From positions 10,354,001 to 10,418,000 of the forward strand of contig OZ059897.1 in the NCBI GenBank assembly GCA_964057225.1: a stretch of 64,000 bases of DNA. Reading direction: 5' to 3'. The translations under genes were made by a program, and so were the position numbers. Positions 3,775 through 29,226 of this stretch are shown one piece after another; within the stretch, counting starts at the first letter, position 1, and each line of letters opens with the position of its first letter. Below the pieces are notes generated by a model. It was not told the DNA's origin, ran no database searches, and saw nothing but the letters and a program-made list of their open reading frames with translations. The DNA comes from Auanema rhodensis (Eukaryota; Animalia; Nematoda).

Positions 3775-3780
3775 TTTTTT
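3775..3780 (+). terminator. RNA polymerase III terminator (T6), repeated as T5-T6 in each unit
   Basis: TTTTTT immediately follows the discriminator base. Confidence 0.85.
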
Positions 3781-7100: not shown

Positions 7101-10100
7101 TGAAATTTAAATGCTATAAAATTATTGCTTGCTTGTCATGTTAGATTTGTTTAATTTGAATACTTATTTAGGTTCGAACAATTTTCGATTAAATCACGTT
7201 CATTAAACTGTATTGTTTTCAAAAATAAAGACAAAATTCAATTTCTGTTCATTGAATTAGAATTTTTATGTTGTCACACAGGAAATGAAGAATCTTAGTT
7301 CATTTCAGTAACAATGAACACAATAATTTTGTATAGTTTGTAATACCGGCCCAAGTAGTATAGTGGTTAGTACTCCACGTTGTGGCCGTGGCGACACAGG
7401 TTCGATTCCTGTCTTTGGCATTTTTTGTTTTGAAATTAAAAAGCTATAAACATATTGCTTGCTTGTCATGTTAGATTTGTTTAATTTAAATACTTATTTA
7501 AGTTCTAACAATTTTTGATTTAATCACGTTCAATTAACTGTATTGTTTTCAAAAATAAAGACATCCTTCAATTTCTGGTCATTGAATTAGAATTTTCATG
7601 TTGTCACACAGGAAATGAAGAATCTTAGTTCATTTCAGTAACAATGAACACACTATTTTTGTTAAGTTGTTGTAATATCGGCCCAAGTAGTATAGTGGTT
7701 AGTACTCCACGTTGTGGCCGTGGCGACACAGGTTCGATTCCTGTCTTGGGCATTTTTTGTTTTGAAATTAAAATGCTATAAAATTATTGCTTGCTTGTCA
7801 TGTTAGATTTGTTTAATTTGAATACTTATTTAGGTTCGAACAATTTTCGATTAAATCACGTTCATTAAACTGTATTGTTTTCAAAAATAAAGACAAAATT
7901 CAATTTCTGTTCATTGAATTAGAATTTTCATGTTGTCACACAGGAAATGAAGAATCTTAGTTCATTTCAGTAACAATGAACACACTAATTTTGTTAAGTT
8001 GTTGTAATATCGGCTCAAGTAGTATAGTGGTTAGTACTCCACGTTGTGGCCGTGGCGACACAGGTTCGATTCCTGTCTTGGGCATTTTTTGTTTTGAAAT
8101 TAAAATGCTATAAAATTATTGCTTGCTTGTCATGTTAGATTTGTTTAATTTAAATACTTATTTAAGTTCCAACAATTTTCGATCAAATCACGTTCATTAA
8201 ACTGTATTGTTTTCAAAAATAAAGACATCTTTCAATTTCTGGTCATTGAATTAGAATTTTCATGTTGTCACACAGGAAATGAAGAATCTTAGTTCATTTC
8301 AGTAACAATGAACACAATAATTTGGTTTAGTTTGTAATACCGGCCCAAGTAGTATAGTGGTTAGTACTCCACGTTGTGGCCGTGGCGACACAGGTTCGAT
8401 TCCTGTCTTGGGCATTTTTTGTTTTGAAATTTAAATGCTATAAAATTATTGCTTGCTTGTCATGTTAGATTTGTTTAATTTGAATACTTATTTAGGTTCG
8501 AACAATTTTCGATTAAATCACGTTCATTAAACTGTATTGTTTTCAAAAATAAAGACAAAATTCAATTTCTGTTCATTGAATTAGAAATTTCATGTTGTCA
8601 CACAGAAATTGAAGAATCTTAGTTCATTTCAGTAACAATGAACACACTAACTTTGTTAAGTTGTTGTAATATCGGCCCAAGTAGTATAGTGGTTAGTACT
8701 CCACGTTGTGGCCGTGGCGACACAGGTTCGATTCCTGTCTTGGGCATTTTTTGTTTTGAAATTTAAATGCTATAAAATTATTGCTTGCTTGTCATGTTAG
8801 ATTTGTTTAATTTGAATACTTATTTAGGTTCGAACAATTTTCGATTAAATCACGTTCATTAAACTGTATTGTTTTCAAAAATAAAGACAAAATTCAATTT
8901 CTGTTCATTGAATTAGAATTTTTATGTTGTCACACAGGAAATGAAGAATCTTAGTTCATTTCAGTAACAATGAACACAATAATTTTGTATAGTTTGTAAT
9001 ACCGGCCCAAGTAGTATAGTGGTTAGTACTCCACGTTGTGGCCGTGGCGACACAGGTTCGATTCCTGTCTTGGGCATTTTTTGTTTTGAAATTAAAAAGC
9101 TATAAACATATTGCTTGCTTGTCATGTTAGATTTGTTTAATTTAAATACTTATTTAAGTTCTAACAATTTTTGATTTAATCACGTTCAATTAACTGTATT
9201 GTTTTCAAAAATAAAGACATCCTTCAATTTCTGGTCATTGAATTAGAATTTTCATGTTGTCACACAGGAAATGAAGAATCTTAGTTCATTTCAGTAACAA
9301 TGAACACACTATTTTTGTTAAGTTGTTGTAATATCGGCTCAAGTAGTATAGTGGTTAGTACTCCACGTTGTGGCCGTGGCGACACAGGTTCGATTCCTGT
9401 CTTGGGCAATTTTTGTTTTGAAATTAAAATGCTATAAAATTATTGCTTGCTTGTCATGTTAGATTTGTTTAATTTAAATACTTATTAAAGTTCCAACAAT
9501 TTTCGATTAAATCACATTCAATTAACTGTATTGTTTTCAAAAATAAAGACAAAATTCAACTTCTGTTCATTGAATTAGAATTTTCATGTTGTCACACAGG
9601 AAATGAAGAATCTTAGTTCATTTCAGTAACAATGAACACACTATTTTTGTTAAGTTGTTGTAATATCGGCTCAAGTAGTATAGTGGTTAGTACTCCACGT
9701 TGTGGCCGTGGCGACACAGGTTCGATTCCTGTCTTGGGCATTTTTTGTTTTGAAATTTAAATGCTATAAAATTATTGCTTGCTTGTCATGTTAGATTTGT
9801 TTAATTCAAATACTTATTTAAGTTCCAACAATTTTCGATTAAATCACGTTCATTAAACTGTATTGTTTTCAAAAATAAAGACATCTTTCAATTTCTGGTC
9901 ATTGAATTAGAATTTTCATGTTGTCACACAGAAATTGAAGAATCTTAGTTCATTTCAGTAACAATGAACACACTAACTTTGTTAAGTTGTTGTAATATCG
10001 GCCCAAGTAGTATAGTGGTTAGTACTCCACGTTGTGGCCGTGGCGACACAGGTTCGATTCCTGTCTTGGGCATTTTTTGTTTTGAAATTTAAATGCTATA

Positions 10101-10771
10101 AAATTATTGCTTGCTTGTCATGTTAGATTTGTTTAATTCAAATACTTATTTAAGTTCTAACAATTTTTGATTTAATCACGTTCAATTAACTGTATTGTTT
10201 TCAAAAATAAAGACATCTTTCAATTTCTGGTCATTGAATTATAATTTTCATGTTGTCACACAGAAATTGAAGAATCTTAGTTCATTTCAGTAACAATGAA
10301 CACACTAACTTTGTTAAGTTGTTGTAATATCGGCCCAAGTAGTATAGTGGTTAGTACTCCACGTTGTGGCCGTGGCGACACAGGTTCGATTCCTGTCTTG
10401 GGCATTTTTTGTTTTGAAATTTAAATGCTATAAAATTATTGCTTGCTTGTCATGTTAGATTTGTTTAATTCAAATACTTATTTAAGTTCTAACAATTTCT
10501 GATTTAATCACGTTCAATTAACTGTATTGTTTTCAAAAATAAAGACAAAATTCAATTTCTGTTCATTGAATTAGAATTTTTATGTTGTCACACAGGAAAT
10601 GAAGAATCTTAGTTCATTTCAGTAACAATGAACACACTAATTTTGTTAAGTTGTTGTAATATCGGCTCAAGTAGTATAGTGGTTAGTACTCCACGTTGTG
10701 GCCGTGGCGACACAGGTTCGATTCCTGTCTTGGGCATTTTTTGTTTTGAAATTAAAATGCTATAAAATTAT

Positions 10772-11137
10772 CGTTCCATTCGGAGACTCTATATATGTAA
10801 CTGCAGGGTTAGAGCCAGACCGACTAGAGGAATGAGGAATGGCACCGCCTTCCCTCATGCCCCTATTCGGGAGTTCGCCCCTTTGCAAGCCCATGGACGG
10901 TTTGCATCTAACTTAGTTAATCTTATATATTAGTCTTTGTCTTGTAAATGTAGTTTACTTTATCCTTGTGTTAATGTATTGTAATGATATTGTATTGTGT
11001 ATAATAAACCTATATATTTCCTTATCTTATGTAATCCTTATGCTCTGTTTCCATACCGCTACACTTATGGAATACTATACGCGTAGTTGAGCAGACTACA
11101 ATGGTCTGTTCAATATACGTAGGAGCATAATGGAACG
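10772..11137 (+). repeat. 5' LTR of element B (366 bp)
   Basis: CGTTCCATT...AATGGAACG, a 9-bp terminal inverted repeat. Direct repeat of 22480-22845. Contains AATAAA. Confidence 0.97.
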
Positions 11138-11150
11138 TGGAGGTTCCACC
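11138..11150 (+). promoter_or_regulatory. Primer-binding site of B (tRNA-Gln)
   Basis: TGGAGGTTCCACC directly after the LTR. Confidence 0.85.
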
Positions 11151-12120
11151 TCGAACTCATTTTTGTCGCAAAAACTCGCATAAAAAGTCCATATTTTGAT
11201 ATCTAAATTAAAACTTCCTCCACGGTTAGCAACATAATGAGGGCGCCAACTTGTATAAGGTGCAGGTACAAGGGATCTCTCTTTTAGAGAGCTAGGACTA
11301 CATAATTTTGAAATTTCACCCGCTGTCCCCACTCATAAAACCGTCTGAGTGTCCACCCTTATAATACCGTATCCTGCACCGCTTCTCTTGCATTTTTTTT
11401 TGAGGACGTTTGGATCGAAATAGGGGACAATTTCACCAAACGAAATTTTGATTACATTATTATTTGGCAACGAGGAGTTAGAATGAAATTTTGAAAGCGC
11501 ACAAAGTTTAATATTTTATTGTGGTCAGGACTAGAGATTTGAAAGTTAAATTCAGGCGTAAAAGAGCATGCTAACTAAATATTTTTGCGGGAGCCGTTAT
11601 TCGGTTTTTATTTTTTTTTTGATTGTGAGAATAGACCACACTAGTCCGAAAAATCCTGGCACAAATTTTATTGCCTGTCAGGTCATTTTGGCGAAAGCAC
11701 ATGGGCTACGGATGTTTTCTTCTCCGTAGAATGTGTCACCTTCCTCAGCTCATTTTTGTTGCTAACATCATAAGATATTCCCACACACCTACCGTAGTAT
11801 TCATATTGTAATATTCTATAAATTAGTAGAATGGTTTAAAGAAAAAAATTGCGTTTTATAAACGAGCTTTGGTCTCAGTCCATTAGTAAAATGAGCAATC
11901 TTTTTAAATATTCTCGGAATCTCATTAGCATGCCAAAATCATTCCGAAAAAGAATCGCCCACGGCTTTTAATAATAACGTGCACATGAGCCATTTTCCCA
12001 AGGCGCACGCACTCCTTCTTTATTAATAAGCTCGACCAAAGTTTGTGTTATGGAAAAAAAAAAAAAAGAGAGAGAGAACAAATGAGTGAAATTAAGTATT
12101 TATTATATATGAAACAATTG

Positions 12121-12654
12121 TTAAAAGCCCCATTTAAAATGCAACTGTCTCACAAATTCTATAGGCTGTGAGATGGGCTCATCGCTAGGCTCTAAATACT
12201 GCGAATACACCGAATCCGCAGAGGTCCTTAGCAATAAGCCCATAGGAGACTGTTCATAAAATAAATAAATTTTAAACAAAATTTTAGACATATAATCATA
12301 AAAATCATGAGACTTATGCTCATACCAATTCCAAGGGGATGCGACCAGATTTGGGTTTTCATACCAATGCGCGCACAAGTCGGTGAGGCACCATCGCCGG
12401 ATAGCTGCAACCTCATCCGCTATTTCCTGCATTAGGGAGAAGTTTACTAATCCCCTTCCCAGATAATGCATCTTTAAATCCTCAATAAACTAAAAATTCT
12501 TATTAAGATAACATGTTTCTTTGTTTTAACCAACCATCTTAATTATGTCTGGGTGCGGCCTATAAGCTAACACTTCGTCTTGATCATACAAGACGAGGTC
12601 AGCGTACAGCTTCCTCAAGACAAAAGTCATTCCCGATAGACCTTCATAAGCCAT
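12121..12654 (-). CDS. Predicted two-exon antisense accessory gene of element B, 162 aa, unknown function
   Basis: Exon 1 12654-12535 (MAYEGLSG...DIIKM), a 45-nt intron 12534-12490 (GTTGGT...TTTTTAG, with an in-frame stop), and exon 2 12489-12121 in frame with the 116-aa ORF. AATAAA at 12104-12099. Confidence 0.7.
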
Positions 12655-13067
12655 TCTTTGATTTATTTTTTTTTTTCAGCTCTACAAATATAAAGATTCT
12701 TATGCATAAAAAGGGGACATAAAACGACTGAAAATCTCTCTCATACTTTCAAGAATTCAATTAGAGTAAAGTATTAAGATTGAGGCTAGAAAGAGCGAAG
12801 ACCAAAAAAAATTTATAATTGATGAACATCTGTGAAATAGAATAAAGAAAAGAGAATACGGTAGATAGGCGGAGCCAGATCTCAGGCCAAGATTTTAAAA
12901 CTCTTTCTCATCTAATAACGATTCTCGGCGAAAGACGCCACGTCTCAATCTTCAAACGTTTCTTACTTTTCCTATAACCGACCCGAATTTCTTGTCACTC
13001 ATTCAACGTCAACATCCCCCATATAACGAAACACTCGCGGTTTTTCCGAACCAAGAGTGATTCCAAA

Positions 13068-16000
13068 GTGGCACGAAGATACTCTTCGGCCGTCCCTGCT
13101 CTATACCCTTCTGAGTCCAGTGACGACATCGCAGTCGCCAGTCGAACCAGAAGCCGCACTCGACTCCTCAGTGTTCAGATTGAAGAGCCTGAACAAGAGG
13201 TAAAACCCAAAGTCGAGAAAACCTTCATTCCTCGAGAAGGCACGTATTCACCTCCGGACAACACCGAGGAGGACCCTGATTTCTATATTCAGGACTACAA
13301 TATTCAAACTTCAGCTTCAACTCCAAAGGTACACTCTTTTAAAAGTAATAAAAAGATTCAAAAAATTCAAAAACCAAAACAAATAACCTCTAATACTTCA
13401 CCAGCCACTCCCCACCTAAACTTATCAACTTTATCAGTTAATACTGATAACGATCTTGCATCTTCTTTTGAACTAACTCTAACACCGCAGGCATTTTCCA
13501 CTCCGATAGAAAACTCACAACTTAATAAAACCTCATCTCTCACTATTCGCAAATCACCCTTATCAGTTATCACTGATAAGCTTGATTCGAAAAAGCTTGA
13601 TTCTAAAAAAATTAATAAAAGAAAAACTAATACACCGCGTAGGCGCTCAACCTCTAATAATCCCGTAGAACCAAATCAGGAAATTACCGAAGTTTTGCCC
13701 TTATCACTAACTACTGATAAGTTCAAAAGTAAGAAATCTTTAACAGCTCGCTTAATAAAAGTTTTGAATTTGTCTCCAGGGGAGGTAACAACAGAACAAG
13801 TTGATAACTCTCTTCACGTATCCTCCAACCCAACCCTTAATAAGTCAGATAGCGCTATACCCAGCTCAAGCGTATCAATACATTCGACGCCTCAGGCAAC
13901 GAGTCGAATTATCAAACTCCCAGGGAAGCGGTTCTCCTCAGCCGCCCCTACCATTAGTTATCCAACATCTGGTAACTCGAAAAAGGGAGGTAAGAATTTA
14001 ACGGCGAGAAGCTCAGGCAGTAAAGGGATTACGTCATCTCGCACATACCCTGAGGATATACCAACCATGACGGAGACACCACGTCTTCCGGGAGCTGGTA
14101 AATCTACCATTGCGCACGCATTAAGCTCACCTTATTGCCCCATATACGACGGAAGTCGTAACTTTAGAGATTTCGTGGCAAAGTTTAATACCTTTTCTAA
14201 CGCCTTAGGCTTAGTGATGCCCGAAAGACTAACTATTTTACCATTACTATTGAAAAATGATAGAGCAGAGGAAGCTTATTTAGAGCTACCTGACAAGGTC
14301 AGAACTGCTGGACCTTGGGTTACCCTAATAGAAGAGTTAACATCCAAGCTGTGTCCCGAATACAATCAAGACCCTGCCCTTATCACACTTCAAAACAGCA
14401 CTCAAGGCGATTTATCAATTGATGGTTTTGCACAAACGTTAAGAAACCTCAGCTTAAATGCTTTCTCTAATAGTGATACTCATAAAGATCACATTCTGAG
14501 GTCCACATTTTTGAGAGGCTTGAAAAATACGATACGCCCAGGGGTAATTCGAGCAAAACCCAAAACTTTTGCTGAGGCTGTTGATAGTGCTCGCTGGGAG
14601 GAATCAATTGCAAACCAAGTAGCAGACCCTCAGGCGCTATTGGTTAACGCAATTGAAAGAACTTTCCCCCCGCGCAGAAACAATGGTGGGAGAGGTATGG
14701 CAAGAGGTTATCAATCTTTTAATAATAAAAATTATCAAAATTATAATAATTATAACAATTATCATCCAAACTTTCAAAACAATCAAAATTATCATAAATT
14801 TTCAAAAAATCAAAAAGGCTGGAATTTCCAAAACCCATTTGCTAGGAACCGCAATTTTGGTGACCGCGGTCGAAATTATCAGAATCAAAATCAAAATGGG
14901 TATCAAAGAAGCCATAATGCATCACAAAATCAAGAAATGAGCAATAATAGACAGAGAAATAACAGTACCTTTAGGGGAAATAACAACAATAGAGGCAGAG
15001 GTAGAGGCTCAAGAGTCAATAATTTGACTCTGATATCTCCTTTGACTTTAGCCGTAGCTTTATCAGTAATCTTATCACTGGTTACAACAGCTGAAGCATA
15101 CCAGCTATGTACTAAAGCTACTGGAGGAGCCCTTCTCCGTCCCCCATCTCTCCGAAAATGCTTATTACCACCAATAAAGCATATCTTACGAACAAAAGTT
15201 CATCTTTATACAAGGAATCAAACGGCACATGAATGGGATGCATGGAGATGCTCCAAAGAAATTCATAAAATGTGTATCAGAGACCTTTTGTTCCTTAGAG
15301 ATACCAATACAACGATAGCGAGAATTGAAAAGATACCAGCTGCAGAATGCAGACTGGCAGTGAGAGATAGAAGATGGAATTGGAGTGAATTAAAGAAGAT
15401 CGACAGCATAACATATGCAACTGACGAGCCTTCCTTCTCGCCAGGCCGATCTTTTAATAATGAGCTATGTGAAGAGAAAGCCAGATTGGTTATCGAAAGA
15501 GGGGTTATGACACGGATGCCAGATGAAACTATAATCTCCAATTTAATACTAAATACTGAAGGATGCTTAGCGCATCATGGAGAATGTGCATCAGATACCT
15601 CAATCATCATATGGGAGAAACAGCCTTATGAATATCGATGCAACTATATCGACATGAGTGAATATGATGTGATAATTGGAGACGGCATTATTCTGTTACC
15701 AACCACTCAATCAGCCCTTGTAATCGATCAAAAAGAGATACCGAAGCAAATATCTTCTTGTTTTAAACAGCCAATCTTCCACACCACAACTGGCAATTAC
15801 ATTCTCTTACCACAGTACCCAAATGACACCAATATCCATGTTTTAATAGAGAGAGAATATAAGAAACTTCCGGCGAAAAGAGATAAAAGAGCAATTGCGG
15901 AATGCACGGTTGAATTAAACAAGGAGTGGATACAAAAACAGGAAGATTTTGAAACTTTAATATTAAATATTTGTCCTTATCCTTTCTTACGACCGGTGAT

Positions 16001-19000
16001 GAGTAATCCTGGTATTTATCAGATAATACCGCTTATAAAGGCCAGACGAGCTGTCAACCCTTCATATTCAATTATTGACTGGGTTTCAGCACATCCCGAG
16101 AAGTTTTATTTCTTCTTAAGAAGTCCCGTATCTGATAAATCCATACAACGTTTCCTTCAAACATACGAAATACACGACCCTGAGGAAGCAATACTTTATT
16201 TTCTTGCGCAAAAGGAACTGGCAGCAACCACTCGCGGCGCTATACGGTATTTAACCTCACAACAATTATTAGAACAGATAGGTGACAGATTAACAGCACA
16301 CGAATTTGACGAAAAACTGCTAGAAAAAGACGGATCCTACCGTGAAAGAGCCGAAAGCATAGCGATGGAGTTAGCTTATACACCGGTAATATTTGAAAAC
16401 AATCTGTCGGTACCATCAAGGCAAGAGGTTTTAAAATCCTTTGTGAACATGCCGCCGATCCGACCAACTCTAACAACTGACAATGCTGATGAGCGTATAG
16501 TACTTAGAAACACTCTTTACTTATACCATAACTTGATGACATTGCGAGTAATAAGGCCAAATAAAACAGCAGCAGCCGTAGATGATGAAAAGTTCCGACA
16601 ATTAACAATCAATGTGCCAGATACCAACAAATTATATCGAGATAAAGATTCTAACTACGGTATATCGATAGGGCCCCACCCTCGCATTCAAAACCCAAGC
16701 GCAGATACACGCCAGCTACTTATAAAAACATTTTTACCACTGTTAGAGGATATTGAAACACCGCCTTATCTGACTAGAAGACTGTCATTAACGACAACAA
16801 CGGACAAACCCGCTTCACTAGTTCAGGAGACAACTAAAAGCCATACGACTCGGATTCCGACGACAACCACAGTTGAGACGACAACAGCCGCGATAACTAC
16901 GACTCTCTCGCCAACAACATTAGCAACAGTCACTGACACGGCGTCACGAATCTTAAGGAAACAAAGAACATCATCTCCACCCGTAGAAACCAGAGAAATT
17001 CAGGCTCAGGCAACGTATACAGCGTCAAAAGTGAACAACGAAATACAATTCAACCTCAACGTATCTCGCAGAATAGCTCAAGATCATCTACAATATACAA
17101 CAACACTCATACAAGAAGAGCTACAGAAACATTTCATGGAATCTTATGAATCCATATGTGAGATTCAAAATAGATACCTCGAGCTATGGCGTTCTATTTT
17201 ACACATAGAACCTACAATAGCAATGAGGACTATTTTAGGAAGAGAGGATATTGCAGCCCGTTTCGTAGGCAGCGATATAGTTCATGTTCATATATGCCTA
17301 CCTCTTCAACCTAAAGCTGTTTATCATAATCATAAGATCAATGATACATGCTATTTGGAAACACCAGTAATAACAGAAGATGAGAGATTATATTTTGCTG
17401 CTCCAGGATCAAGAGACTTATTAACACATGGAAAAGAGATAGATTGCGAACATGTACCCACAGATGTATACTATCAAAATGGAGAATGGATAAATATAAA
17501 TGGATCGGTTGAAGTAAAACCAATATCACTCTTTGATAAAGCGCAATACCACCAATTAACACCTTTAAAGTTCACAGGCGCTAACTTATACACCAATTTA
17601 TCATTGAGAGTTTACTCAATGTCAACAGCTATTGCATATGGAGCAAGTTTAGCATCCATACGACAGAACCATGTTTTACATACTATTCACAACGATCCAA
17701 AAATTACGTCCGCCTTTAATCTTTTGAAAAAGGGCAGTGACTATATCTCTAAAGCAGCTGAGTTCACAACTTCCGCCTGGACTAGCGTAAAGCAATTTCT
17801 AATAGGATCAATTGAGAGAACACTCATCTTCATAGGATCAATGGTTACGATTGCCGCAGTATTAATAATTCTTTTCGTTGTTGCTAAATTTTGGTTCTTC
17901 AGAGCCACTCCACTAACCGTAATGCATGTCCACGAAATAGATAATGAGCCCCCAAGCTATGAAGAAACATTGGAACTTGTAAGCCGCCCAGACCAACAGA
18001 TGCCAGATAACATCATGAAGCAATACTATCCTGCTTTAGTAACATTTATTCCAATCGCAATACCATTTGTTGCTTCTATTGTATCAGCGGAAACAAAGTT
18101 ACCATTAATATATATATCAGTTGAAGATAAACTGATTTTAGCTTTATGGGATTCAGGCTCATCAGTGTCATATGTTAGGCTCTCCACCCTCAAATATCTG
18201 AACATGGCCGAAAATGTCAAGAAGAGACATTTAGTAGCGATGGCAGCCAACAAGTCCACTTTCACATTTTATGGAAAGATAAATCTTGTAATTGAAATTG
18301 CCGGTTACGAGATCGAACACACCTTTTTGGTCTCAAACGATCATGACTGTCCTGCTCCCGCTTTAATTGGACTAGATTTCATGAAAGCGCTTGACAGCGA
18401 AAACATCGACGTCAGCCTTAAACCATCCAAGAAGAGGTTGGAGATTGGAAACAATGCCATCCCATTAATAGGAAACGAATCTATTAAGCATACGGAGATA
18501 ACTGTGAATATCATTAATTTAAGAACAAAAACATTAAAGCCTGATGAAGAGGCACCTATCCCAATAAAGACAGATAAACCACTAGAATCTAACGAAGTGG
18601 TTGTCTTAGGGGATAGTGGAAGCGCATTAAAATCATTATATCCAACTGCGTTTCGTGATACCAGTGGAGTATATGTTATGTTCCGTAACAATACCGATGA
18701 AACAATAGCTATGGAAGCTAATTCAGTCATCGGACAGGCAATAATTGGAGAAATTCCGGCTTGTGAACCCTTTAAGCATAAGCCAATTCTACCATATGTT
18801 CCGCCAGAGGCCGATTGGGAGAGTAAACTACCATATTTTCCAAGAGACTTCATAAAAGATCTTGATCTAGAGAATGCTGATCTCACGAAAGAAGAAAAAC
18901 ATGAGCTTACAAAAATAATTGAAAGCCATCGTGAGGCATTTCTTAACGAGGACAGGAAAATAGGCTTATTTAAAGGTCCTATAGAGCATACCATACCATT

Positions 19001-21773
19001 GAGAACAGATATGGATATGCCAAAGCCGAGAATAACACGTATTCCCTTAGGAAAACAGGAAGAAATTGAAAAACAAGTCAAAGAAATGCTTGAGCAAGGC
19101 ATAATAGAGCCTTCTACATCTCTATTTAATAGCCCTGTAGTACTAGTTAAGAAGAAAGATGACACGTATAGGTTTGTGACAGATTTTCGAGCTTTAAATA
19201 ATGTCACACGCAAGCAAACTTATGTCATTCCAAGCATTTCTGACATAGTTGATTTGGCAGCAGGCGCCCAATTTTTCTCAAACTTCGATTTAGTGTCAGG
19301 ATTTTTTCAAATATCCTTGAGAAAATCAGATCGACCACTAACAGCATTTACGACCACATCCGGCACATACCAGTACAAACGGATGCCGATGGGCCTTTGT
19401 GGAGCCCCTCATACCTTTCAAACAGCAGTAAGGTATTTGCAAAGTAAATGTTCTTGTAAACTATTTGTTTATTTGGACGATCTATTAGTTATATCTGATA
19501 CAAGAGAACAACATCTCAAAGATATCGATGATTTACTGCAAGCAGTAGAAGAATTGGGAATGAAGATAAAGCTTAAGAAATGCGCTTTTGCTCAACCAGA
19601 AGTGAAATTTCTAGGACTTATTGTAGGACGTCAAGGTATAAAACCTGACCCTCAAAAAGTCGCCGCCATACAAGATTATCCGGCACCAAAGAATGCAACA
19701 GGTGTACGAGCATTCTTGGGAATGGTTGGATTCTTTCGCAAATTCATGAAAGATTTTGCACGTATCGCAAGCCCTTTATACGATCTGACAAAGGCAGATA
19801 CTGAATTCAAATGGGAAAACAAACATCAAGAAGCTTTAGACCTCCTTAAAAGAAGTTTAATACAGGCACCCGTTTTAAGCCCACCTAAATCGGACCGCTT
19901 GTTTATAGTTGAAAGCGACGGTAGTAACATCGCCATAGGTGCTGTATTATTACAACCGGAAGATCCAAAACAACCTCTGAAAAATCTACACCCTATCGCA
20001 TTTGCAAGCAGAAAACTAGTTAAAGCCGAACGTAACTACGCACCAATCGAGATAGAAGCATTAGGCCTTGTATATGCATTAAATCAATTCCGTACATACA
20101 TTCTTGGAACTCATACTATATGTATTACGGACCATCGACCTCTTACCAGCTTAATGACACGCAGAGACTTATTTGGTCGTCTTGCGAAGTTCCAGCTGGT
20201 CATCCAAGAATATGATATTGAAATAAAATATCGCGCAGGCCAATTAAATAAAGTATGCGATGCTCTATCTCGATATATAGGTGAAGAAGCTAACGATGCT
20301 AAGCCGGAAACAAAGAAGAAGAAAATGGAAGAAATTCACATTAACGCCATAAATACACCAACAATAAAGGAAATTCAACTAAGCACCCCTTGGATTAAAC
20401 GGACGATAGCGGAGATTGAATATAGAGCACAAAAGAACATGACAGCTAATGACAGATATTGTGTCATAAATGACTTGCTCTATACAAAACCAACAGACAA
20501 AAAGCCACAACCCGCTATCGTAATACCACAAGAACACCCCATAATTGAGGAAATAATCAAAGTTTTTCATGAGGATCCTACAATTGCAGCACATCAAGGA
20601 ATTATTAAAACAAAAGAAGCAATTCTAAGAAGATTCTATTGGACAAATATGCAGAACGACATTACTATATTCATCAAGAACTGCATTAAATGTGCTCAAA
20701 GAAAAAAAGATCCACATTCCATGACGGTACAACCAATAGGTCATTTTGAGATACCAAGCAAGCCATTTGAACGAGTCCACATGGACGTAATGGGACCATT
20801 TCCCCCTTCAAAAAGAAACTGTACCTACGTCATTACCATGCAAGACGCATTTACAAAATGGTCAACAACAATTGCTGTACCACAAATAACAACGGAAATC
20901 ACAATTGATCGATTTCTAAGACATTTCGTTTACATTTTTGGACCACCCCATCGCTTGATCACCGATAGAGGTTCAAACTTTGTATCTAAAAAGTTCGAAG
21001 AAATGTGTACTAAACTTGGAATCAAACATGAACCAACACTACCACACCAAAAGAACTCAAATGGACAAGTGGAAAGACTTCACCGAACCCTCGAAGAAGG
21101 ATTAACCCACTACTTAAAAGAGGACCTTAGTGACTGGGATACTGTATTACCAAAAATCACTTTTGCTATTAACAATATTCAGCACGCGACTACAGGGATT
21201 GCGCCATACATTGCATTATTCGGTAAAGAATGCAGAATGTCAATGGACGCTGAATTACCAGAAACGATCACCAAAATTCAAGAAATTTCTGAAGAATTAC
21301 TCCAAAGAAGACCAGATATGGACAAGAGAGACGAAATAATAAAGAACCGCATAGCTAAAAATCAAGAAAATGCGAAAAAGAAGAAAGATAGAACGCAAAG
21401 AGCACACCATAGAGACATTCAACCGGGCGACATGGTGATGACGACTATAAAATCACACCAAATCGGCCAAAAGCTTCGGAAAAGCTATGATGGACCATGC
21501 GAAGTCATCAACGTAGAAGGATCAAAAGTTCAAATCAGAAATTCATCAGGAAAACTACAAGATATCCACAAAGATAACTTGAAAATCTTCTCTCCTGCTT
21601 CACAAAACATCTCTTACAACACTCGCGCAAGGTTTCGAGAAAGTCAAGCAGAAGAAGATAGCGACATCGAAATAATAGAAGTGATCAACAGGAACAACAA
21701 GGATAGCATAGATACAGAGCCAGAAGATGAAAATGAAGACGAAATATGGCTTCCGAGGAATGAAGAAGAATAA
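13068..21773 (+). CDS. Gag-Env-Pol polyprotein of element B (2901 aa from GTG; true start uncertain, first ATG at 14067)
   Basis: Gag (YDG, LRSTFLRGL), signal peptide, Cys-rich glycoprotein, TM, protease LWDSGS (18150), RT YLDD (19470), RNase H (ESDGS...EALGL...TDH), and integrase HHCC + D,D,E + YDGP motif. The PR-RT-RH-IN order and motifs fit Ty3/Gypsy. Confidence 0.95.
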   Translation: MARRYSSAVPALYPSESSDDIAVASRTRSRTRLLSVQIEEPEQEVKPKVEKTFIPREGTYSPPDNTEEDPDFYIQDYNIQTSASTPKVHSFKSNKKIQKIQKPKQITSNTSPATPHLNLSTLSVNTDNDLASSFELTLTPQAFSTPIENSQLNKTSSLTIRKSPLSVITDKLDSKKLDSKKINKRKTNTPRRRSTSNNPVEPNQEITEVLPLSLTTDKFKSKKSLTARLIKVLNLSPGEVTTEQVDNSLHVSSNPTLNKSDSAIPSSSVSIHSTPQATSRIIKLPGKRFSSAAPTISYPTSGNSKKGGKNLTARSSGSKGITSSRTYPEDIPTMTETPRLPGAGKSTIAHALSSPYCPIYDGSRNFRDFVAKFNTFSNALGLVMPERLTILPLLLKNDRAEEAYLELPDKVRTAGPWVTLIEELTSKLCPEYNQDPALITLQNSTQGDLSIDGFAQTLRNLSLNAFSNSDTHKDHILRSTFLRGLKNTIRPGVIRAKPKTFAEAVDSARWEESIANQVADPQALLVNAIERTFPPRRNNGGRGMARGYQSFNNKNYQNYNNYNNYHPNFQNNQNYHKFSKNQKGWNFQNPFARNRNFGDRGRNYQNQNQNGYQRSHNASQNQEMSNNRQRNNSTFRGNNNNRGRGRGSRVNNLTLISPLTLAVALSVILSLVTTAEAYQLCTKATGGALLRPPSLRKCLLPPIKHILRTKVHLYTRNQTAHEWDAWRCSKEIHKMCIRDLLFLRDTNTTIARIEKIPAAECRLAVRDRRWNWSELKKIDSITYATDEPSFSPGRSFNNELCEEKARLVIERGVMTRMPDETIISNLILNTEGCLAHHGECASDTSIIIWEKQPYEYRCNYIDMSEYDVIIGDGIILLPTTQSALVIDQKEIPKQISSCFKQPIFHTTTGNYILLPQYPNDTNIHVLIEREYKKLPAKRDKRAIAECTVELNKEWIQKQEDFETLILNICPYPFLRPVMSNPGIYQIIPLIKARRAVNPSYSIIDWVSAHPEKFYFFLRSPVSDKSIQRFLQTYEIHDPEEAILYFLAQKELAATTRGAIRYLTSQQLLEQIGDRLTAHEFDEKLLEKDGSYRERAESIAMELAYTPVIFENNLSVPSRQEVLKSFVNMPPIRPTLTTDNADERIVLRNTLYLYHNLMTLRVIRPNKTAAAVDDEKFRQLTINVPDTNKLYRDKDSNYGISIGPHPRIQNPSADTRQLLIKTFLPLLEDIETPPYLTRRLSLTTTTDKPASLVQETTKSHTTRIPTTTTVETTTAAITTTLSPTTLATVTDTASRILRKQRTSSPPVETREIQAQATYTASKVNNEIQFNLNVSRRIAQDHLQYTTTLIQEELQKHFMESYESICEIQNRYLELWRSILHIEPTIAMRTILGREDIAARFVGSDIVHVHICLPLQPKAVYHNHKINDTCYLETPVITEDERLYFAAPGSRDLLTHGKEIDCEHVPTDVYYQNGEWININGSVEVKPISLFDKAQYHQLTPLKFTGANLYTNLSLRVYSMSTAIAYGASLASIRQNHVLHTIHNDPKITSAFNLLKKGSDYISKAAEFTTSAWTSVKQFLIGSIERTLIFIGSMVTIAAVLIILFVVAKFWFFRATPLTVMHVHEIDNEPPSYEETLELVSRPDQQMPDNIMKQYYPALVTFIPIAIPFVASIVSAETKLPLIYISVEDKLILALWDSGSSVSYVRLSTLKYLNMAENVKKRHLVAMAANKSTFTFYGKINLVIEIAGYEIEHTFLVSNDHDCPAPALIGLDFMKALDSENIDVSLKPSKKRLEIGNNAIPLIGNESIKHTEITVNIINLRTKTLKPDEEAPIPIKTDKPLESNEVVVLGDSGSALKSLYPTAFRDTSGVYVMFRNNTDETIAMEANSVIGQAIIGEIPACEPFKHKPILPYVPPEADWESKLPYFPRDFIKDLDLENADLTKEEKHELTKIIESHREAFLNEDRKIGLFKGPIEHTIPLRTDMDMPKPRITRIPLGKQEEIEKQVKEMLEQGIIEPSTSLFNSPVVLVKKKDDTYRFVTDFRALNNVTRKQTYVIPSISDIVDLAAGAQFFSNFDLVSGFFQISLRKSDRPLTAFTTTSGTYQYKRMPMGLCGAPHTFQTAVRYLQSKCSCKLFVYLDDLLVISDTREQHLKDIDDLLQAVEELGMKIKLKKCAFAQPEVKFLGLIVGRQGIKPDPQKVAAIQDYPAPKNATGVRAFLGMVGFFRKFMKDFARIASPLYDLTKADTEFKWENKHQEALDLLKRSLIQAPVLSPPKSDRLFIVESDGSNIAIGAVLLQPEDPKQPLKNLHPIAFASRKLVKAERNYAPIEIEALGLVYALNQFRTYILGTHTICITDHRPLTSLMTRRDLFGRLAKFQLVIQEYDIEIKYRAGQLNKVCDALSRYIGEEANDAKPETKKKKMEEIHINAINTPTIKEIQLSTPWIKRTIAEIEYRAQKNMTANDRYCVINDLLYTKPTDKKPQPAIVIPQEHPIIEEIIKVFHEDPTIAAHQGIIKTKEAILRRFYWTNMQNDITIFIKNCIKCAQRKKDPHSMTVQPIGHFEIPSKPFERVHMDVMGPFPPSKRNCTYVITMQDAFTKWSTTIAVPQITTEITIDRFLRHFVYIFGPPHRLITDRGSNFVSKKFEEMCTKLGIKHEPTLPHQKNSNGQVERLHRTLEEGLTHYLKEDLSDWDTVLPKITFAINNIQHATTGIAPYIALFGKECRMSMDAELPETITKIQEISEELLQRRPDMDKRDEIIKNRIAKNQENAKKKKDRTQRAHHRDIQPGDMVMTTIKSHQIGQKLRKSYDGPCEVINVEGSKVQIRNSSGKLQDIHKDNLKIFSPASQNISYNTRARFRESQAEEDSDIEIIEVINRNNKDSIDTEPEDENEDEIWLPRNEEE
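15024..17900 (+). other. env: Env domain of B: signal peptide, class III (gB-like) fusogen ectodomain and TM anchor
   Basis: Signal ...LAVALSVILSLVTTAEA|YQLC. Motif CEIQNRYLELW...P...GR..IAARFVGSD...C...CY..P. Furin-type sites RDKR and RKQR, several N-x-S/T sequons, TM LIFIGSMVTIAAVLIILFVV. Confidence 0.8.
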
Positions 21774-22468
21774 CAACAAGATAATGCTACGTTATTTAAA
21801 TTATTGTAACAAAATAACGATGAATTAAAAAAAAAAAAAAAAAAATTAATGCTAAATAACATTCAAAATAAAAATAGCATTTAATAGAGATTGAGAAAGG
21901 AAAAATAAGGCAAATTCTAAACGAGGAGATGTTATGACTAATGGTTCCAAGTTACCGTAATCCTATGCGGACTAGAGGACATTTTGACAACCATCCGAGC
22001 TCCATGTGCCTCTCCAAATAAGATGAGATGAACACTGGTAGGCGTATCAACCACAATTTCATCTTAAGTGGTAGTCTCCATTAGTAATCAAGGATTCACT
22101 CTGGGAGACATATGGAGACACATTATTAAATCATAATCTCGGTTCAATTTAGAAATGAGTACTTCTTGAGACCATTAGTCAAAATAATAACATATTCCCA
22201 TTCATTACTAGCCCCTTTATTCTACAATCTCTATTAGGAAATGCTTGAATATTAAGATAATTAATTTATGAAATTAATAATATTCTAATTCATCGTCCCT
22301 TCATATTATATTGAACCCTTCTTATAAATTATTGTAATTTTGTTTGTATACTAACTAAAACTCTATCATACTATAGTTATTGTGAAGCTAAAACAATTGA
22401 ACTCTAAAACTCAGTTACATATAAGCCCAAATTTTTGTTTAAAATATCGCGAGGTCGCGACAATCTTT

Positions 22469-22479
22469 GAAAAAGGGCA
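22469..22479 (+). promoter_or_regulatory. Short polypurine tract of B plus CA spacer
   Basis: GAAAAAGGG-CA immediately before the 3' LTR. Confidence 0.7.
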
Positions 22480-22845
22480 CGTTCCATTCGGAGACTCTAT
22501 ATATGTAACTGCAGGGTTAGAGCCAGACCGACTAGAGGAATGAGGAATGGCACCGCCTTCCCTCATGCCCCTATTCGGGAGTTCGCCCCTTTGCAAGCCC
22601 ATGGACGGTTTGCATCTAACTTAGTTAATCTTATATATTAGTCTTTGTCTTGTAAATGTAGTTTACTTTATCCTTGTGTTAATGTATTGTAATGATATTG
22701 TATTGTGTATAATAAACCTATATATTTCCTTATCTTATGTAATCCTTATGCTCTGTTTCCATACCGCTACACTTATGGAATACTATACGCGTAGTTGAGC
22801 AGACTACAATGGTCTGTTCAATATACGTAGGAGCATAATGGAACG
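22480..22845 (+). repeat. 3' LTR of element B (366 bp)
   Basis: Direct repeat of 10772-11137. Confidence 0.97.
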
Positions 22846-25800
22846 TTATTGCTTGCTTGTCATGTTAGATTTGTTTAATTTGAATACTTATTTAGGTTCG
22901 AACAATTTTCGATTAAATCACGTTCATTAAACTGTATTGTTTTCAAAAATAAAGACAAAATTCAATTTCTGTTCATTGAATTAGAATTTTCATGTTGTCA
23001 CACAGAAATTGAAGAATCTTAGTTCATTTCAGTAATAATGAACACACTAACTTTGTTAAGTTGTTGTAATATCGGCCCAAGTAGTATAGTGGTTAGTACT
23101 CCACGTTGTGGCCGTGGCGACACAGGTTCGATTCCTGTCTTGGGCATTTTTTGTTTTGAAATTTAAATGCTATAAAATTATTGCTTGCTTGTCATGTTAG
23201 ATTTGTTTAATTTGAATACTTATTTAGGTTCGAACAATTTTCGATTAAATCACGTTCATTAAACTGTATTGTTTTCAAAAATAAAGACAAAATTCAATTT
23301 CTGTTCATTGAATTAGAATTTTTATGTTGTCACACAGGAAATGAAGAATCTTAGTTCATTTCAGTAACAATGAACACAATAATTTTGTATAGTTTGTAAT
23401 ACCGGCCCAAGTAGTATAGTGGTTAGTACTCCACGTTGTGGCCGTGGCGACACAGGTTCGATTCCTGTCTTGGGCATTTTTTGTTTTGAAATTAAAAAGC
23501 TATAAACATATTGCTTGCTTGTCATGTTAGATTTGTTTAATTTAAATACTTATTTAAGTTCTAACAATTTTTGATTTAATCACGTTCAATTAACTGTATT
23601 GTTTTCAAAAATAAAGACATCCTTCAATTTCTGGTCATTGAATTAGAATTTTCATGTTGTCACACAGGAAATGAAGAATCTTAGTTCATTTCAGTAACAA
23701 TGAACACACTATTTTTGTTAAGTTGTTGTAATATCGGCCCAAGTAGTATAGTGGTTAGTACTCCACGTTGTGGCCGTGGCGACACAGGTTCGATTCCTGT
23801 CTTGGGCATTTTTTGTTTTGAAATTAAAATGCTATAAAATTATTGCTTGCTTGTCATGTTAGATTTGTTTAATTTGAATACTTATTTAGGTTCGAACAAT
23901 TTTCGATTAAATCACGTTCATTAAACTGTATTGTTTTTAAAAATAAAGACAAAATTCAATTTCTGTTCATTGAATTAGAATTTTCATGTTGTCACACAGA
24001 AATTGAAGAATCTTAGTTCATTTCAGTAATAATGAACACACTAACTTTGTTAAGTTGTTGTAATATCGGCCCAAGTAGTATAGTGGTTAGTACTCCACGT
24101 TGTGGCCGTGGCGACACAGGTTCGATTCCTGTCTTGGGCATTTTTTGTTTTGAAATTTAAATGCTATAAAATTATTGCTTGCTTGTCATGTTAGATTTGT
24201 TTAATTTGAATACTTATTTAGGTTCGAACAATTTTCGATTAAATCACGTTCATTAAACTGTATTGTTTTCAAAAATAAAGACAAAATTCAATTTCTGTTC
24301 ATTGAATTAGAATTTTTATGTTGTCACACAGGAAATGAAGAATCTTAGTTCATTTCAGTAACAATGAACACAATAATTTTGTATAGTTTGTAATACCGGC
24401 CCAAGTAGTATAGTGGTTAGTACTCCACGTTGTGGCCGTGGCGACACAGGTTCGATTCCTGTCTTGGGCATTTTTTGTTTTGAAATTAAAAAGCTATAAA
24501 CATATTGCTTGCTTGTCATGTTAGATTTGTTTAATTTAAATACTTATTTAAGTTCTAACAATTTTTGATTTAATCACGTTCAATTAACTGTATTGTTTTC
24601 AAAAATAAAGACATCCTTCAATTTCTGGTCATTGAATTAGAATTTTCATGTTGTCACACAGGAAATGAAGAATCTTAGTTCATTTCAGTAACAATGAACA
24701 CACTATTTTTGTTAAGTTGTTGTAATATCGGCCCAAGTAGTATAGTGGTTAGTACTCCACGTTGTGGCCGTGGCGACACAGGTTCGATTCCTGTCTTGGG
24801 CATTTTTTGTTTTGAAATTTAAATGCTATAAAATTATTGCTTGCTTGTCATGTTAGATTTGTTTAATTTAAATACTTATTTAAGTTCCAACAATTTTTGA
24901 TTTAATCACGTTCAATTAACTGTATTGTTCTCAAAAATAAAGACATCTTTCAATTTCTGGTCATTGAATTAGAATTTTCATGTTGTCACACAGAAATTGA
25001 AGAATCTTAGTTCATTTCAGTAACAATGAACACACTAACTTTGTTAAGTTGTTGTAATATCGGCCCAAGTAGTATAGTGGTTAGTACTCCACGTTGTGGC
25101 CGTGGCGACACAGGTTCGATTCCTGTCTTGGGCATTTTTTGTTTTGAAATTTAAATGCTATAAAATTATTGCTTGCTTGTCATGTTAGATTTGTTTAATT
25201 CAAATACTTATTTAAGTTCTAACAATTTCTGATTTAATCACGTTCAATTAACTGTATTGTTTTCAAAAATAAAGACAAAATTCAATTTCTGTTCATTGAA
25301 TTAGAATTTTTATGTTGTCACACAGGAAATGAAGAATCTTAGTTCATTTCAGTAACAATGAACACACTAATTTTGTTAAGTTGTTGTAATATCGGCTCAA
25401 GTAGTATAGTGGTTAGTACTCCACGTTGTGGCCGTGGCGACACAGGTTCGATTCCTGTCTTGGGCATTTTTTGTTTTGAAATTAAAATGCTATAAAATTA
25501 TTGCTTGCTTGTCATGTTAGATTTGTTTAATTTGAATACTTATTTAGGTTCGAACAATTTTCGATTAAATCTCGTTCATTAAACTGTATTGTTTTCAAAA
25601 ATAAAGACAAAATTCAATTTCTGTTCATTGAATTAGAATTTTCATGTTGTCACACAGAAATTGAAGAATCTTAGTTCATTTCAGTAATAATGAACACACT
25701 AACTTTGTTAAGTTGTTGTAATATCGGCCCAAGTAGTATAGTGGTTAGTACTCCACGTTGTGGCCGTGGCGACACAGGTTCGATTCCTGTCTTGGGCATT

Positions 25801-25914
25801 TTTTGTTTTGAAATTTAAATGCTATAAAATTATTGCTTGCTTGTCATGTTAGATTTGTTTAATTTGAATACTTATTTAGGTTCGAACAATTTTCGATTAA
25901 ATCACGTTCATTAA
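22846..25914 (+). repeat. tRNA-His(GTG) tandem array block 2 (~9 genes)
   Basis: First tRNA 23075-23146, last 25727-25798. Confidence 0.97.
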
Positions 25915-26251
25915 CGTTCCGTTATGCTCTCACGTCGATCCTATAGACCAATAAAGCCTACAAGATGAGTGTGATAGTATTCCAGATGTAGCGGTAGTTA
26001 AAGAGCATAATGGATAAACATAAGACTCGAGAAAGAAAGGTTTATTATGTCTACATGATTACAATAAGTTATATAAGTCTACATAAAGATATAAAGTGAA
26101 AGAGAGCTAAGAAAGGAAGACCAACCATCCATAGTCATTCCATAAGGCAAAGCTGAAGTCTGTGTTCCATATGAAGGGCGTGTCGTCCTCTCTCAGCCTC
26201 ATGTCGTCTGATTCTAACCCGCCTGCTACGTATTGATTTCCGAATGGAACG
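25915..26251 (-). repeat. 3' LTR of element C (337 bp)
   Basis: Direct repeat of 28890-29226 and reverse complement of the D LTR. Confidence 0.95.
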
Positions 26252-26974
26252 TGCCATTTTTTCGAGTTTATGTCGCGTCCCCGCGAATAGCAAAATATGT
26301 GGCTTGTTTCAATCGTAGCAGAAGGTTTAGTTTTAAAAATAAAAATTACAATGTTAACATAAAAATAGTAAAGATAAATTACAATATAATGTTAAACAAT
26401 AGTATCTGAAAAGAATTCAATAAAAATTATTTGAAAATACATGAATATTAAGTAATAAAACAATCTTTTAGAATACCAGGGCTATATTTTGTCAGCGAGA
26501 GTGCGCAAAATAGCTTTTTAGGCACGACGCTGCATGTCTAACTTGTTTGAGTATAGAGAAACGAGAGTCATGCTATATTATCGATGGAGCTAGCATGTTT
26601 CCTCAGCGTATTCAAAGCGAATTGTAATAATAAAAAAATGAAAATAAATTAAATCCCATATAATTTCCAAAATTGAATCATTAACTACTTGATAAGGACT
26701 GTTGCTCAGATGAATATGCAATATAATGTCTCTTATCTTTCATTTCTTCTTTATTTACGGGAAATTATTTGAAATTGATGTTTTTTTTTTTTTTTGAAAA
26801 ATTGAAGTATTATAATCATATATGCTTTGAAACTGAAGTGCTTTTTGATTATTAGCTTACATCTCGTCTTACTCAAGTTTTTCAATGATATAATAATATT
26901 AATAGCTCTGGTTTTTTAAAAGAGAGTTGATACAAAGTTTTACAATAATTTTATCAATCTCGAAATTATTTCTT

Positions 26975-27489
26975 TCATCGTCTTCTTCTTGGTGGTAGCC
27001 AATTTTGGTCCGATGGGTCTTCTGGTTCTGTTTCTTCAGTAGAGTCATAGTTATCGTTACCATTTATGACTTTTATGATCTCAATATCGCTGTCGTCGTC
27101 CGTGTCATAAGTCGTTGTATTTGATCGCAAAAGTTTGAGATTGTCTTTGTGTACGTTTTGAATTTTTCCAAATGGATTCTTGAGTTGTACCATGTTTCCT
27201 TCAACGTTGTTGACTTCTTAGCAGTAACTGGTGTTTGTTCTTCCATTGTGATGGATGTTTCTTCTCCTCCTGGTGGTACGTAATCCTCGTCGCTTAATCG
27301 TTCAGTAGGTGAATAAGTGCCTGCACGAGGAGTAAAGAATTTGTCGGTTTTGTGCTCGGCTTTCTGCTCGTCTTCGATTATAGCGATGCTCTGCGCGCGA
27401 GCTCGGCTTCTGGTGAGTGGAGCTGAGTCTCGCAGATCAAAATCAGTTCGTGTACTGAGAGGTACAGCTGATCGGAATCGCTTATCCAC
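26975..27489 (-). pseudogene. Remnant of the polyprotein gene: first ~92 codons fused out of frame to the integrase C-terminal tail
   Basis: ORF 27489-27073 matches the D N-terminus up to VTAKK. ORF 27193-26975 matches the D C-terminus (MVQLKNPFGK...WLPPRRR). Confidence 0.9.
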
Positions 27490-28876
27490 TTTGGTAGTGC
27501 TCTTGGTTTGGAAAAACCTTGAGTGTTTAGTAACGTGGGGGATTTTGAGACGTTAATGAGTGTTATGGATAAGGAGTTTTGGAAAAGGAATGAGAAAGCT
27601 GTGAGTAACTGGTTTGTATAGTCGGCGTTAAGGAATGAATCTAAGTTGTGGCCATCAACAGAGATCCGCCTAAATTTGGACTTTGTTCGCTCTCCAATTT
27701 AATATTCTTAAATGTATATAATTCAACCAGTTTGTATATGTTCAAAAATGTTCAGTGCTCACTTGATTGATGCCTGAGCAATCTCATTAGTCCTTATTCC
27801 CATTTTTTTTCTTTTTCTGACAACTCTGATCTTCTTGGACTCACGAGTGATCGAAAATGCCACGAAAATGGACTTTGGTAAATGTTCAAAGGATTTTAGC
27901 GGTTTTCATAATGTACATTCGTAATAGCATTACTCTTTTAAGGAAGCAATTTGGAAAACGAATGAGTACCGTAGTCCCATCATGATCAGAAATCTAGTTT
28001 TAAAATTATGGCTAGGAATAGATGACTAAAGATTACAATAACTATATTTAAAGAATTATGGTGTTTAGGAATGAGTCTTATGCTTCAAAACAACAATAAC
28101 GGTATGAGGAAGGTGACATATAGTAAGGGGAGAAAATCCAAACTGATATGCTTAAGCCAACACGACCTGATAGACAATCACTAATAATAATTCAGTTCGT
28201 AAAATTGTACAGGATTTTTCGGACTATAGCGATCTTAAAATTCACTTTTCATAATATTCCTCCCATTTAGGTGAGGTTTCCCGTGTAAATTCAATGCGTT
28301 ATCAAATTATTTTTGGATGTTAATGGCAAAAAGTTGTCTGAACAGAAATGTAACGCAAAATAAAATAGTCCTGATCGCAAAATATGAAATAATCTCAATT
28401 TGGTGCGCAAAATTGTTTCATCCACAAAAAACAAAGAAATAACCGTGGCTATTCTTTCCTCGAAGCCAAAATCAATCCTTAAAAGAAGAAAGTGTGGGCA
28501 TAAATCTCAAAAAAAAATTATCCTTGGGTGAATTTGTTCACTAATTCATCCTAGGGTCCTCAAAAATGCTTCGAGTTCGGGTAACAGAGTATTCGATGTT
28601 AACAGCAAGGATATAAAAATTGTTGGGTTCAGACAGACAGAAAATTGTGAACAAACGGGAAAACGTAACTTCAGTTTCAAAAAATATAAAATATCCATCT
28701 CCAAAAGGAGTGGTCCTTGCATCCGTTCCCTTTTAAACGTTGTTGGCCCCACCGTATTGTGTTAAGACATGGAGTAGATGGTTTAGAGATATAAGAGAAT
28801 TCAGATTCAATGAATTGTATTGAAAATAAAGAAATATAAGAGAAAATAGTCAAGAAATCAAGATAAAAATGTTCGA

Positions 28877-28889
28877 GGTGGAACCTCCA
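28877..28889 (-). promoter_or_regulatory. Primer-binding site of C (tRNA-Gln)
   Basis: TGGAGGTTCCACC on the minus strand abutting the LTR. Confidence 0.85.
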
Positions 28890-29226
28890 CGTTCCGTTAT
28901 GCTCTCACGTCGATCCTATAGACCAATAAAGCCTACAAGATGAGTGTGATAGTATTCCAGATGTAGCGGTAGTTAAAGAGCATAATGGATAAACATAAGA
29001 CTCGAGAAAGAAAGGTTTATTATGTCTACATGATTACAATAAGTTATATAAGTCTACATAAAGATATAAAGTGAAAGAGAGCTAAGAAAGGAAGACCAAC
29101 CATCCATAGTCATTCCATAAGGCAAAGCTGAAGTCTGTGTTCCATATGAAGGGCGTGTCGTCCTCTCTCAGCCTCATGTCGTCTGATTCTAACCCGCCTG
29201 CTACGTATTGATTTCCGAATGGAACG
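28890..29226 (-). repeat. 5' LTR of element C (337 bp)
   Basis: CGTTCC...GGAACG on the minus strand, followed by the PBS. Confidence 0.95.

Follow-up and report, generated by a model that had tools for sequence, protein, structure and literature searches.

Two further nematode Gag-Env-Pol retroelements with a predicted gB-type envelope protein, located in a tRNA-His gene array of Auanema rhodensis

Nematode retroelements with a continuous gag-env-pro-pol open reading frame (ORF) were reportedly described under the name NERV by Sacco et al. in 2022 (J Gen Virol 103:1739), and Tas is said to be a BEL/Pao element with an envelope protein (Env) of the gB/chuvirus type. According to the accessible text of Chary and Hayashi (eLife, PMC13524379), the order GAG-ENV-POL with an ENV of the HSV/gB type (HSV, herpes simplex virus) occurs in Nematoda, Bryozoa and Platyhelminthes; this study calls such elements 'ancient errantiviruses', credits Sacco et al. 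2022 for those of nematodes, cites mosquito BEL elements that bear a gB/chuvirus-type Env, and lists in its supplement 36 nematode elements, none from Auanema, with a tRNA-Gln primer site in 8 of the 36. Here we analysed a stretch of 64,000 nucleotides (nt) of Auanema rhodensis (contig OZ059897.1, positions 10,354,001 to 10,418,000; hereafter the window, in which all coordinates are counted), where four long terminal repeat (LTR) elements, designated A, B, C and D, lie inside a tandem repeat. B and D are real, well-formed elements that add members to the published kind, and there is good reason to regard B, D and likely A as young Ty3/Gypsy retroelements of the nematode GAG-ENV-POL type. The gag-env-pol layout, put forward as new in the initial annotation of the window, is already catalogued for the three phyla named above.

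B and D each contain a single stop-free frame, of 2931 amino acids (aa) in B (12978-21773) and 2915 aa in D, in which Gag, an internal signal sequence, Env, a transmembrane helix, protease, reverse transcriptase (RT), RNase H and integrase follow one another, in agreement with the order initially annotated; the length of about 2,900 aa given there holds from stop to stop, whereas the product of B counted from its first ATG (14067) has 2568 aa. Pfam scans of B and D found Monjiviricetes_fusion (E = 6e-15 and 6e-13), Glycoprotein_B under the cut-off and then the protease, RT, RNase H and integrase domains, while a BEL/Pao-type Pol (Peptidase_A17/DUF1759) with a downstream Env was absent from both. 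Gag matched weakly and in D and A only, and Gag of B was assigned by alignment (69% identity). Of the three families initially said to share the plan, B and D show it in full and A, whose minus-strand frame (1-1923) runs off the window, only the Gag-signal-YQLC junction. Hydropathy on the Kyte-Doolittle (KD) scale reaches 2.2-2.3 in the internal signal, ahead of YQLC/YQIC at 15099 (B) and 43294 (D), and 3.0-3.2 in the transmembrane helix; the internal signal is general (of 58 proteins tested, 45 reach a KD of at least 1.6, B and D among them). Among 155 stored proteins, 55 carry Env plus a Ty3-type Pol domain, with Env first in all 55, and 100 gave no Pol match using B's domains. The frame is under purifying selection, with 23 of 30 variants behind the ATC at 13014 being synonymous and 6 of 6 indels falling outside the frame (among the variants listed).

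The RT of both elements belongs to Ty3/Gypsy, as had been proposed: Ty3 is the nearest solved structure in the PDB (E = 1e-79), and in a FastTree phylogeny rooted on BEL/Pao (89 sequences: 46 Gag-Env-Pol, 5 BEL/Pao and 38 of 90 env-less) B and D are nested among Caenorhabditis/Diploscapter Gag-Env-Pol polyproteins (support 0.993). All 10 proteins with at least 53% identity among the best 120 of 218 matches of an RT-RNase H search were Caenorhabditis/Diploscapter proteins with the Env family. The relatives in the tree are database proteins and not the named elements of PMC13524379, and the nearest of them come from species in the list of that study, as far as accessible (C. remanei, C. nigoni and C. 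brenneri), and from other rhabditids. The nearest named proteins to the window elements are those of Auanema sp. JU1783 and Caenorhabditis, the nearest Env being that of Auanema sp. JU1783 (46% identity), and the primer 12-mer of B is identical to the Gln-type site of two Caenorhabditis GAG-ENV-POL elements in the accessible part of PMC13524379. Two database relatives have unusual architectures: the gene model P0005 of Caenorhabditis auriculariae, in which a Gag-Env-Pol element is joined to a GTPase translation-factor domain of the host, is probably an artefact of gene calling, and the Gag-Env-Pol protein P0017 of Caenorhabditis nigoni has two protease domains plus one additional zinc-binding domain of integrase between Env and RT.

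Modelling supports a gB-type class III fold for Env, as the initial annotation had suggested from a gB-like segment. This segment is real: in a PDB search it aligned with chains of herpesvirus gB, the best at E = 2.6e-4. An AlphaFold model of Env from 65 sequences (predicted local distance difference test, pLDDT, 74) gave 114 Foldseek matches at E <= 0.001, the top ones all herpesvirus gB (best E = 5e-11). Moreover, VIA-align placed the model on 9dd7 with Z 10.8 and a root-mean-square deviation of 5.3 over 358 residues, and its BFVD matches were mononegaviral G and gB. The ectodomain, annotated as Cys-rich with some 930-1000 aa, measures 986 aa in D, within that range, but 909 aa in B, and with 16 Cys in each (1.6-1.8% vs 1.2% in Pol) it is hardly Cys-rich. 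Behind the furin-like site, a predicted all-helical insert and a Thr-rich stalk fill a gap of 406 aa in B and 483 aa in D, compared with a median of 44 in 81 proteins. The helical insert is 55% identical between B and D, its variants comprise 11 synonymous and 3 non-synonymous changes, and outside B and D it was found in six Auanema proteins only among 271 stored proteins. Searches with the insert returned no Pfam family, first Atlas hits of 0.90 with low recognition, no Foldseek match at E <= 0.001 (model pLDDT 65) and best VIA hits to death domains and TrpRS (Z 4.9) that are within chance; these failed matches do not prove the predicted fold to be new.

In the favoured reading, the polyprotein probably passes through the membrane of the endoplasmic reticulum (ER) and is probably cleaved by host peptidases on the inside and by its own protease on the outside. 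Translation would begin at the AUC that precedes a hairpin by 14 nt, and leak-through to the AUG before the capsid would give a long and a short Gag. Env would be brought into the ER by the internal signal and its YQLC end released by signal peptidase; furin would cleave at RxKR, before the helical insert, and the transmembrane helix would return the chain to the cytosol. Cleavage by the element protease would take place at sites of the V/I-N-x-V/I type that follow the capsid, precede the signal, lie in the Env tail or separate RNase H from integrase; Pol would thus arrive at the budding site on the tail of Env and not on Gag. PPxY in this tail might recruit the budding machinery. In addition, splicing would give shorter RNAs, and the Gag/Env/Pol ratio therefore need not be 1:1:1. 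Among the elements and their relatives, the linker motif [VI][NH][ANSQ][VIL] was found 36 times in Env tails vs 2.3 in shuffled sequences (24 of 37 proteins) and 7 times vs 0.3 before the signal (7 of 30 proteins); its occurrence downstream of the capsid (6 of 21 proteins) and in the stretch from RNase H to integrase (11 of 22) likewise far exceeds that in shuffles, and the motif is not enriched in ectodomains (6 vs 9.3 shuffled). These linkers, all on the predicted cytosolic side, are likely sites for the element's own protease. PPxY-like motifs are present in 4 of 37 Env tails, B and D included. Between the transmembrane helix and the protease lies a second, Pro-rich hydrophobic segment (about 18020-18089 in B; KD 1.5-2.2), possibly a monotopic Pol anchor. 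Its P-x6-P-x3-P spacing was observed in 14 of 271 stored proteins, mostly of the rhabditine clade, and resembles the proline knot of oleosins.

Several points weigh against this picture. The elements are known here from DNA sequence and predictions. The RT tree was built without GyDB references and with only 38 of 90 env-less sequences. The predicted template-modelling score (pTM) of the Env model is 0.48, and because global TM-scores are about 0.2 the match to gB is a domain-wise one. The topology, with which signal and transmembrane helix are consistent, was judged by hydropathy, and a membrane-crossing pre-protease segment would break it. The choice of the cleavage motif followed inspection of these sequences, the related proteins are not independent of one another, and in the Env tails of B and D the fit is only loose; the presumed resemblance of the motif to known (foamy-virus-like) protease sites was not confirmed in the accessible text of PMC3185560.

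The AUC start is fairly probable. The frame of B had been annotated from 13068, where a GTG stands, but conservation begins at the ATC at 13014: 22 of 40 aligned residues in aa 1-50 of B are identical in D, all from the ATC onward and 11 of them despite altered codons. In D a stop lies three codons before the conserved ATC block, and a variant in one run creates a stop upstream of the ATC in B. The Gag extension, 250-350 residues long, is conserved between B and D and contains no ATG in any frame (0 in 1053 nt of B and 0 in 747 nt of D, vs 13.3 and 8.7 expected by base composition). The hairpin of B has a similar counterpart in D (z = -3.5 and -2.7, respectively), in each case behind an unstructured stretch, and hairpins just downstream can aid non-AUG starts. 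Since Rfam gave no match on element B at E <= 1, B is without a known family of internal ribosome entry sites. The AUG-free extension could instead be fed by a spliced upstream exon, by an internal promoter with another start (GUG 13068) or by reinitiation, and this alternative, which we consider rather unlikely, draws on the 16-24 ATGs that the leaders hold ahead of the AUC, on a perfect acceptor in B at 12679, on the strong-context GUG kept in B and D as a conserved alternative start candidate, and on A, where an ATG (1821) behind an acceptor-like site opens a similar extension ahead of the capsid. The ATGs and the GUG also speak against the AUC, as does codon-preserving resampling, under which the depletion of out-of-frame ATGs is modest (none in 5.8% of trials for B and in 0.9% for D). 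Opposed to the alternative are the sequence of D, with no AG from the upstream stop to the conserved block and no matching acceptor, the onset of conservation 18 codons ahead of the GUG, and copy C, which, if a spliced complementary DNA (cDNA), retained the whole leader. Regarding that copy, its deletion relative to D can be written as GT..AG, which random deletions fit in 0.2% of trials, and its first position is a GT that ranks among the 10 best of the 373 in D; C is thus likely the cDNA of a spliced RNA retaining the leader, and the splice donor of B and D is probably functional, even though the acceptor of C is weak and not kept in B and its junction also shows 3-4 nt of microhomology. Use of the second donor-like site, that of the Env tail, might yield an RNA that lacks Pol. 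A strict 1:1:1 polyprotein, with all parts tethered to the membrane and no spliced RNAs, had been proposed in the initial annotation and agrees with the one frame that runs without stop or frameshift across Gag, Env and Pol; it is improbable given the GT..AG deletion of C at a donor-like site common to B, the second aligned GTAAG-type donor, linker motifs suggesting release of Gag and Pol from membrane anchors, and the use of spliced RNAs, in the accessible texts, by the single-ORF elements BARE (PMC3735527), whose single ORF yields spliced products, and Cer1 (PMC10309623). A conserved alternative-frame protein arising from the C junction was considered and rejected, its frame closing after 3 codons in B.

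The location of the elements allows two readings. All four insertions, from three families, begin their target-site duplications 32, 51, 82 and 113 nt behind a tRNA-His 3' end (for A the offset was calculated manually from the 210 nt that separate it from the next gene); no gene is disrupted by any of them, and the offsets share a phase of about 10.2 nt (R 0.95, P 0.047, found after the fact). Active targeting just downstream of tRNA genes has a precedent in TRE3 and Skipper-2 of Dictyostelium (PMC5633606, in the part accessible). With n = 4, however, P is 0.06 for a span of at most 81 nt and 0.37 for all lying outside genes, the window is nearly all array and without genome background, and the accessible text of a preprint on Auanema rhodense (bioRxiv 10.64898/2026.08.27.747507) places tRNA arrays among the germline-restricted repeats and reports transposable element genes to be enriched in eliminated DNA. 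Passive accumulation is as plausible, and targeting is a tentative suggestion here. It is also conceivable, if somewhat doubtful, that Env has been retained to act within cells or from cell to cell in the germline, without any free infectious particle being made. This would agree with the mostly vertical descent argued for in the accessible text of PMC13524379 and with the lack of a sign of horizontal spread: among the runs listed, 11 of 15, from 5 organism labels, contain at least 0.87 of the words of B, and four runs with other labels (labels B-E) contain the host array spacer as well. None of the runs with B was recorded as RNA, which counts for neither side. Because the spacer is present in the same four runs, B in them is explained by shared host DNA, and horizontal transfer of B was rejected. 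Such a role is harder to reconcile with the purifying selection that acts on a complete predicted fusogen (signal, furin-like site, transmembrane helix and PPxY-like tail). When metagenomes were scanned for related loci, 94 pattern matches were obtained, none of which was confirmed.

The positions of all features are given in Table 1. In each of B, C and D the two LTRs show 100% identity and the element is bordered by a 4-bp duplication, so the insertions are young; B and D share 84% aa identity in RT-RNase H, and 72 of 92 pattern-matched array copies are identical. The LTRs have inverted CG...CG ends in B, C and D and TG...CG ends in A, instead of TG...CA, and integrase would join a 3' G in place of the usual A. 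The primer site comes directly behind these LTRs, without a spacer. Copy C has an additional 36-nt deletion near the integrase end. A short motif common to B (about 12860-12877) and D (about 41350-41367) is a candidate regulatory element; it lies roughly 140 nt before the ATC, in leaders that diverge elsewhere, and is partly deleted in C. A TYSP motif occurs in the N-terminal extensions of all three families (A, B and D). A DNA contig of run X3 jumps over 484 nt (window 13582-14067) and resumes at the first ATG of B, with ends that are not GT..AG.

Table 1. Coordinates of the elements and of their predicted features in the window
Feature	Position	Strand	Remarks
tRNA-His(GTG) tandem array	3703..63760	+	101 genes, unit 330/332 nt; broken up by elements
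Element A	1..3492	-	third family, truncated by window edge; LTR 3076-3492 begins TG, ends CG
Element B	10772..22845	+	full-length LTR retroelement; 4-bp target-site duplication TTAT (10768-10771, 22846-22849)
B 5' LTR	10772..11137	+	366 nt; 100% identity with 3' LTR; inverted ends CG...CG
B primer-binding site	11138..11149	+	Gln-type 12-mer; abuts LTR without spacer
B long leader	11150..13013	+	24 ATGs (counted from 11138), last at 12822; last 144 nt unstructured
B AUG-free N-terminal Gag extension	13014..14066	+	351 codons; likely start ATC 13014, second candidate GTG 13068
B predicted hairpin	13028..13063	+	14 nt behind ATC
B splice-donor-like site	13326..13334	+	aligned with D 41818 (C deletion start)
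B first AUG, capsid-like domain, Asn/Gln/Arg-Gly-rich region	14067..15026	+	capsid-like domain about 14103-14612
B likely protease sites in Gag region	aa 556 and 680
B internal signal sequence	15027..15098	+	ends A-E-A; hydropathy
B Env ectodomain	15099..17825	+	predicted gB-type class III fold; 16 Cys, 10 sequons
B furin-like RDKR	15879-15890	+	in Env
B predicted all-helical insert	15891..16760	+	about 260 aa, behind furin-like site
B Thr-rich stalk	about 16761-16982	+	after helical insert
B Env transmembrane helix	17826..17882	+
B predicted cytosolic Env tail	17883..18089	+	PPSY at 17949-17960
B second donor-like site	17979		GTAAG-type, in Env tail; aligned with D 46411
B Pol	18117..21773	+	protease Asp codon 18150; RT 19146-19622 (YLDD 19470)
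B RNase H	19812-20213	+
B integrase zinc-binding domain and core	20541-21047	+
B 3' LTR	22480..22845	+	purine tract upstream
Element C	25915..29226	-	D-family copy without D 41818-49951; identical LTRs, duplication TTAA
Element D	39796..51260	+	sister family of B; identical LTRs, CG...CG ends, duplication GTTC
D LTR	39796-40132		CG...CG ends
D ORF	41479-50226	+	candidate AUC 41488; first ATG 42235

Combined, these parts would describe an Auanema-type sub-lineage of enveloped metaviruses with a hairpin-assisted AUC start, two Gag forms, splicing-tuned output, a furin-released helical accessory or receptor-binding domain whose fold is unrecognised and which lies within a class III fusogen, CG-ended LTRs, targeting downstream of tRNA genes in arrays and possibly germline restriction. 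As a whole this composite is a speculative proposal, and its single parts are likelier; if true, it would be the first animal tRNA-targeted enveloped retroelement. The accessible text of PMC13524379 makes no mention of a non-AUG extension, a helical insert of about 260 aa, CG...CG ends, a tRNA-array location or processing sites, and in the literature we found no report of non-AUG Gag, nematode tRNA targeting or CG LTR ends, although subscription coverage was thin and Sacco et al. 2022 may have them.

Compared with known systems, the polyprotein recalls by analogy those of flaviviruses and alphaviruses, in that an internal signal follows the capsid and the anchor is likely cleaved twice, by viral as well as host proteases; there is no homology to them, and B and D differ in their predicted class III instead of class II fusogen, aspartic protease and LTR replication. 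C. elegans Cer1 (PMC10309623, accessible text) is likewise a nematode Ty3/Gypsy element with a single polyprotein, and a spliced product draws exons from the Gag region of Cer1, but it has no Env-like protein. Herpesvirus gB and mononegaviral (nyami-, chu- and rhabdo-like) G proteins are also class III, with a beta-rich domain I, a long central helix and a beta domain IV; they show 8-20% identity to the Env of B and D, which differs in lying inside a retroelement polyprotein and in its large helical insert and Thr-rich stalk. BEL/Pao elements with a gB/chuvirus-type Env share the Env family PF24664 and a similar signal-YQIC start, but carry Env after Pol, with Peptidase_A17 in 7 of 16 Env relatives scanned, whereas B and D are without Peptidase_A17. 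With the nematode GAG-ENV-POL errantiviruses, B and D have in common the Gag-Env-Pol order, the gB-type Env, the Ty3/Gypsy Pol, the LTRs and the tRNA-Gln primer site, and for this family, known mainly by genomics, the window offers a testable mechanism in terms of a start site, unequal amounts of Gag, Env and Pol, cleavage sites and a lineage-specific domain in a class III fusogen.

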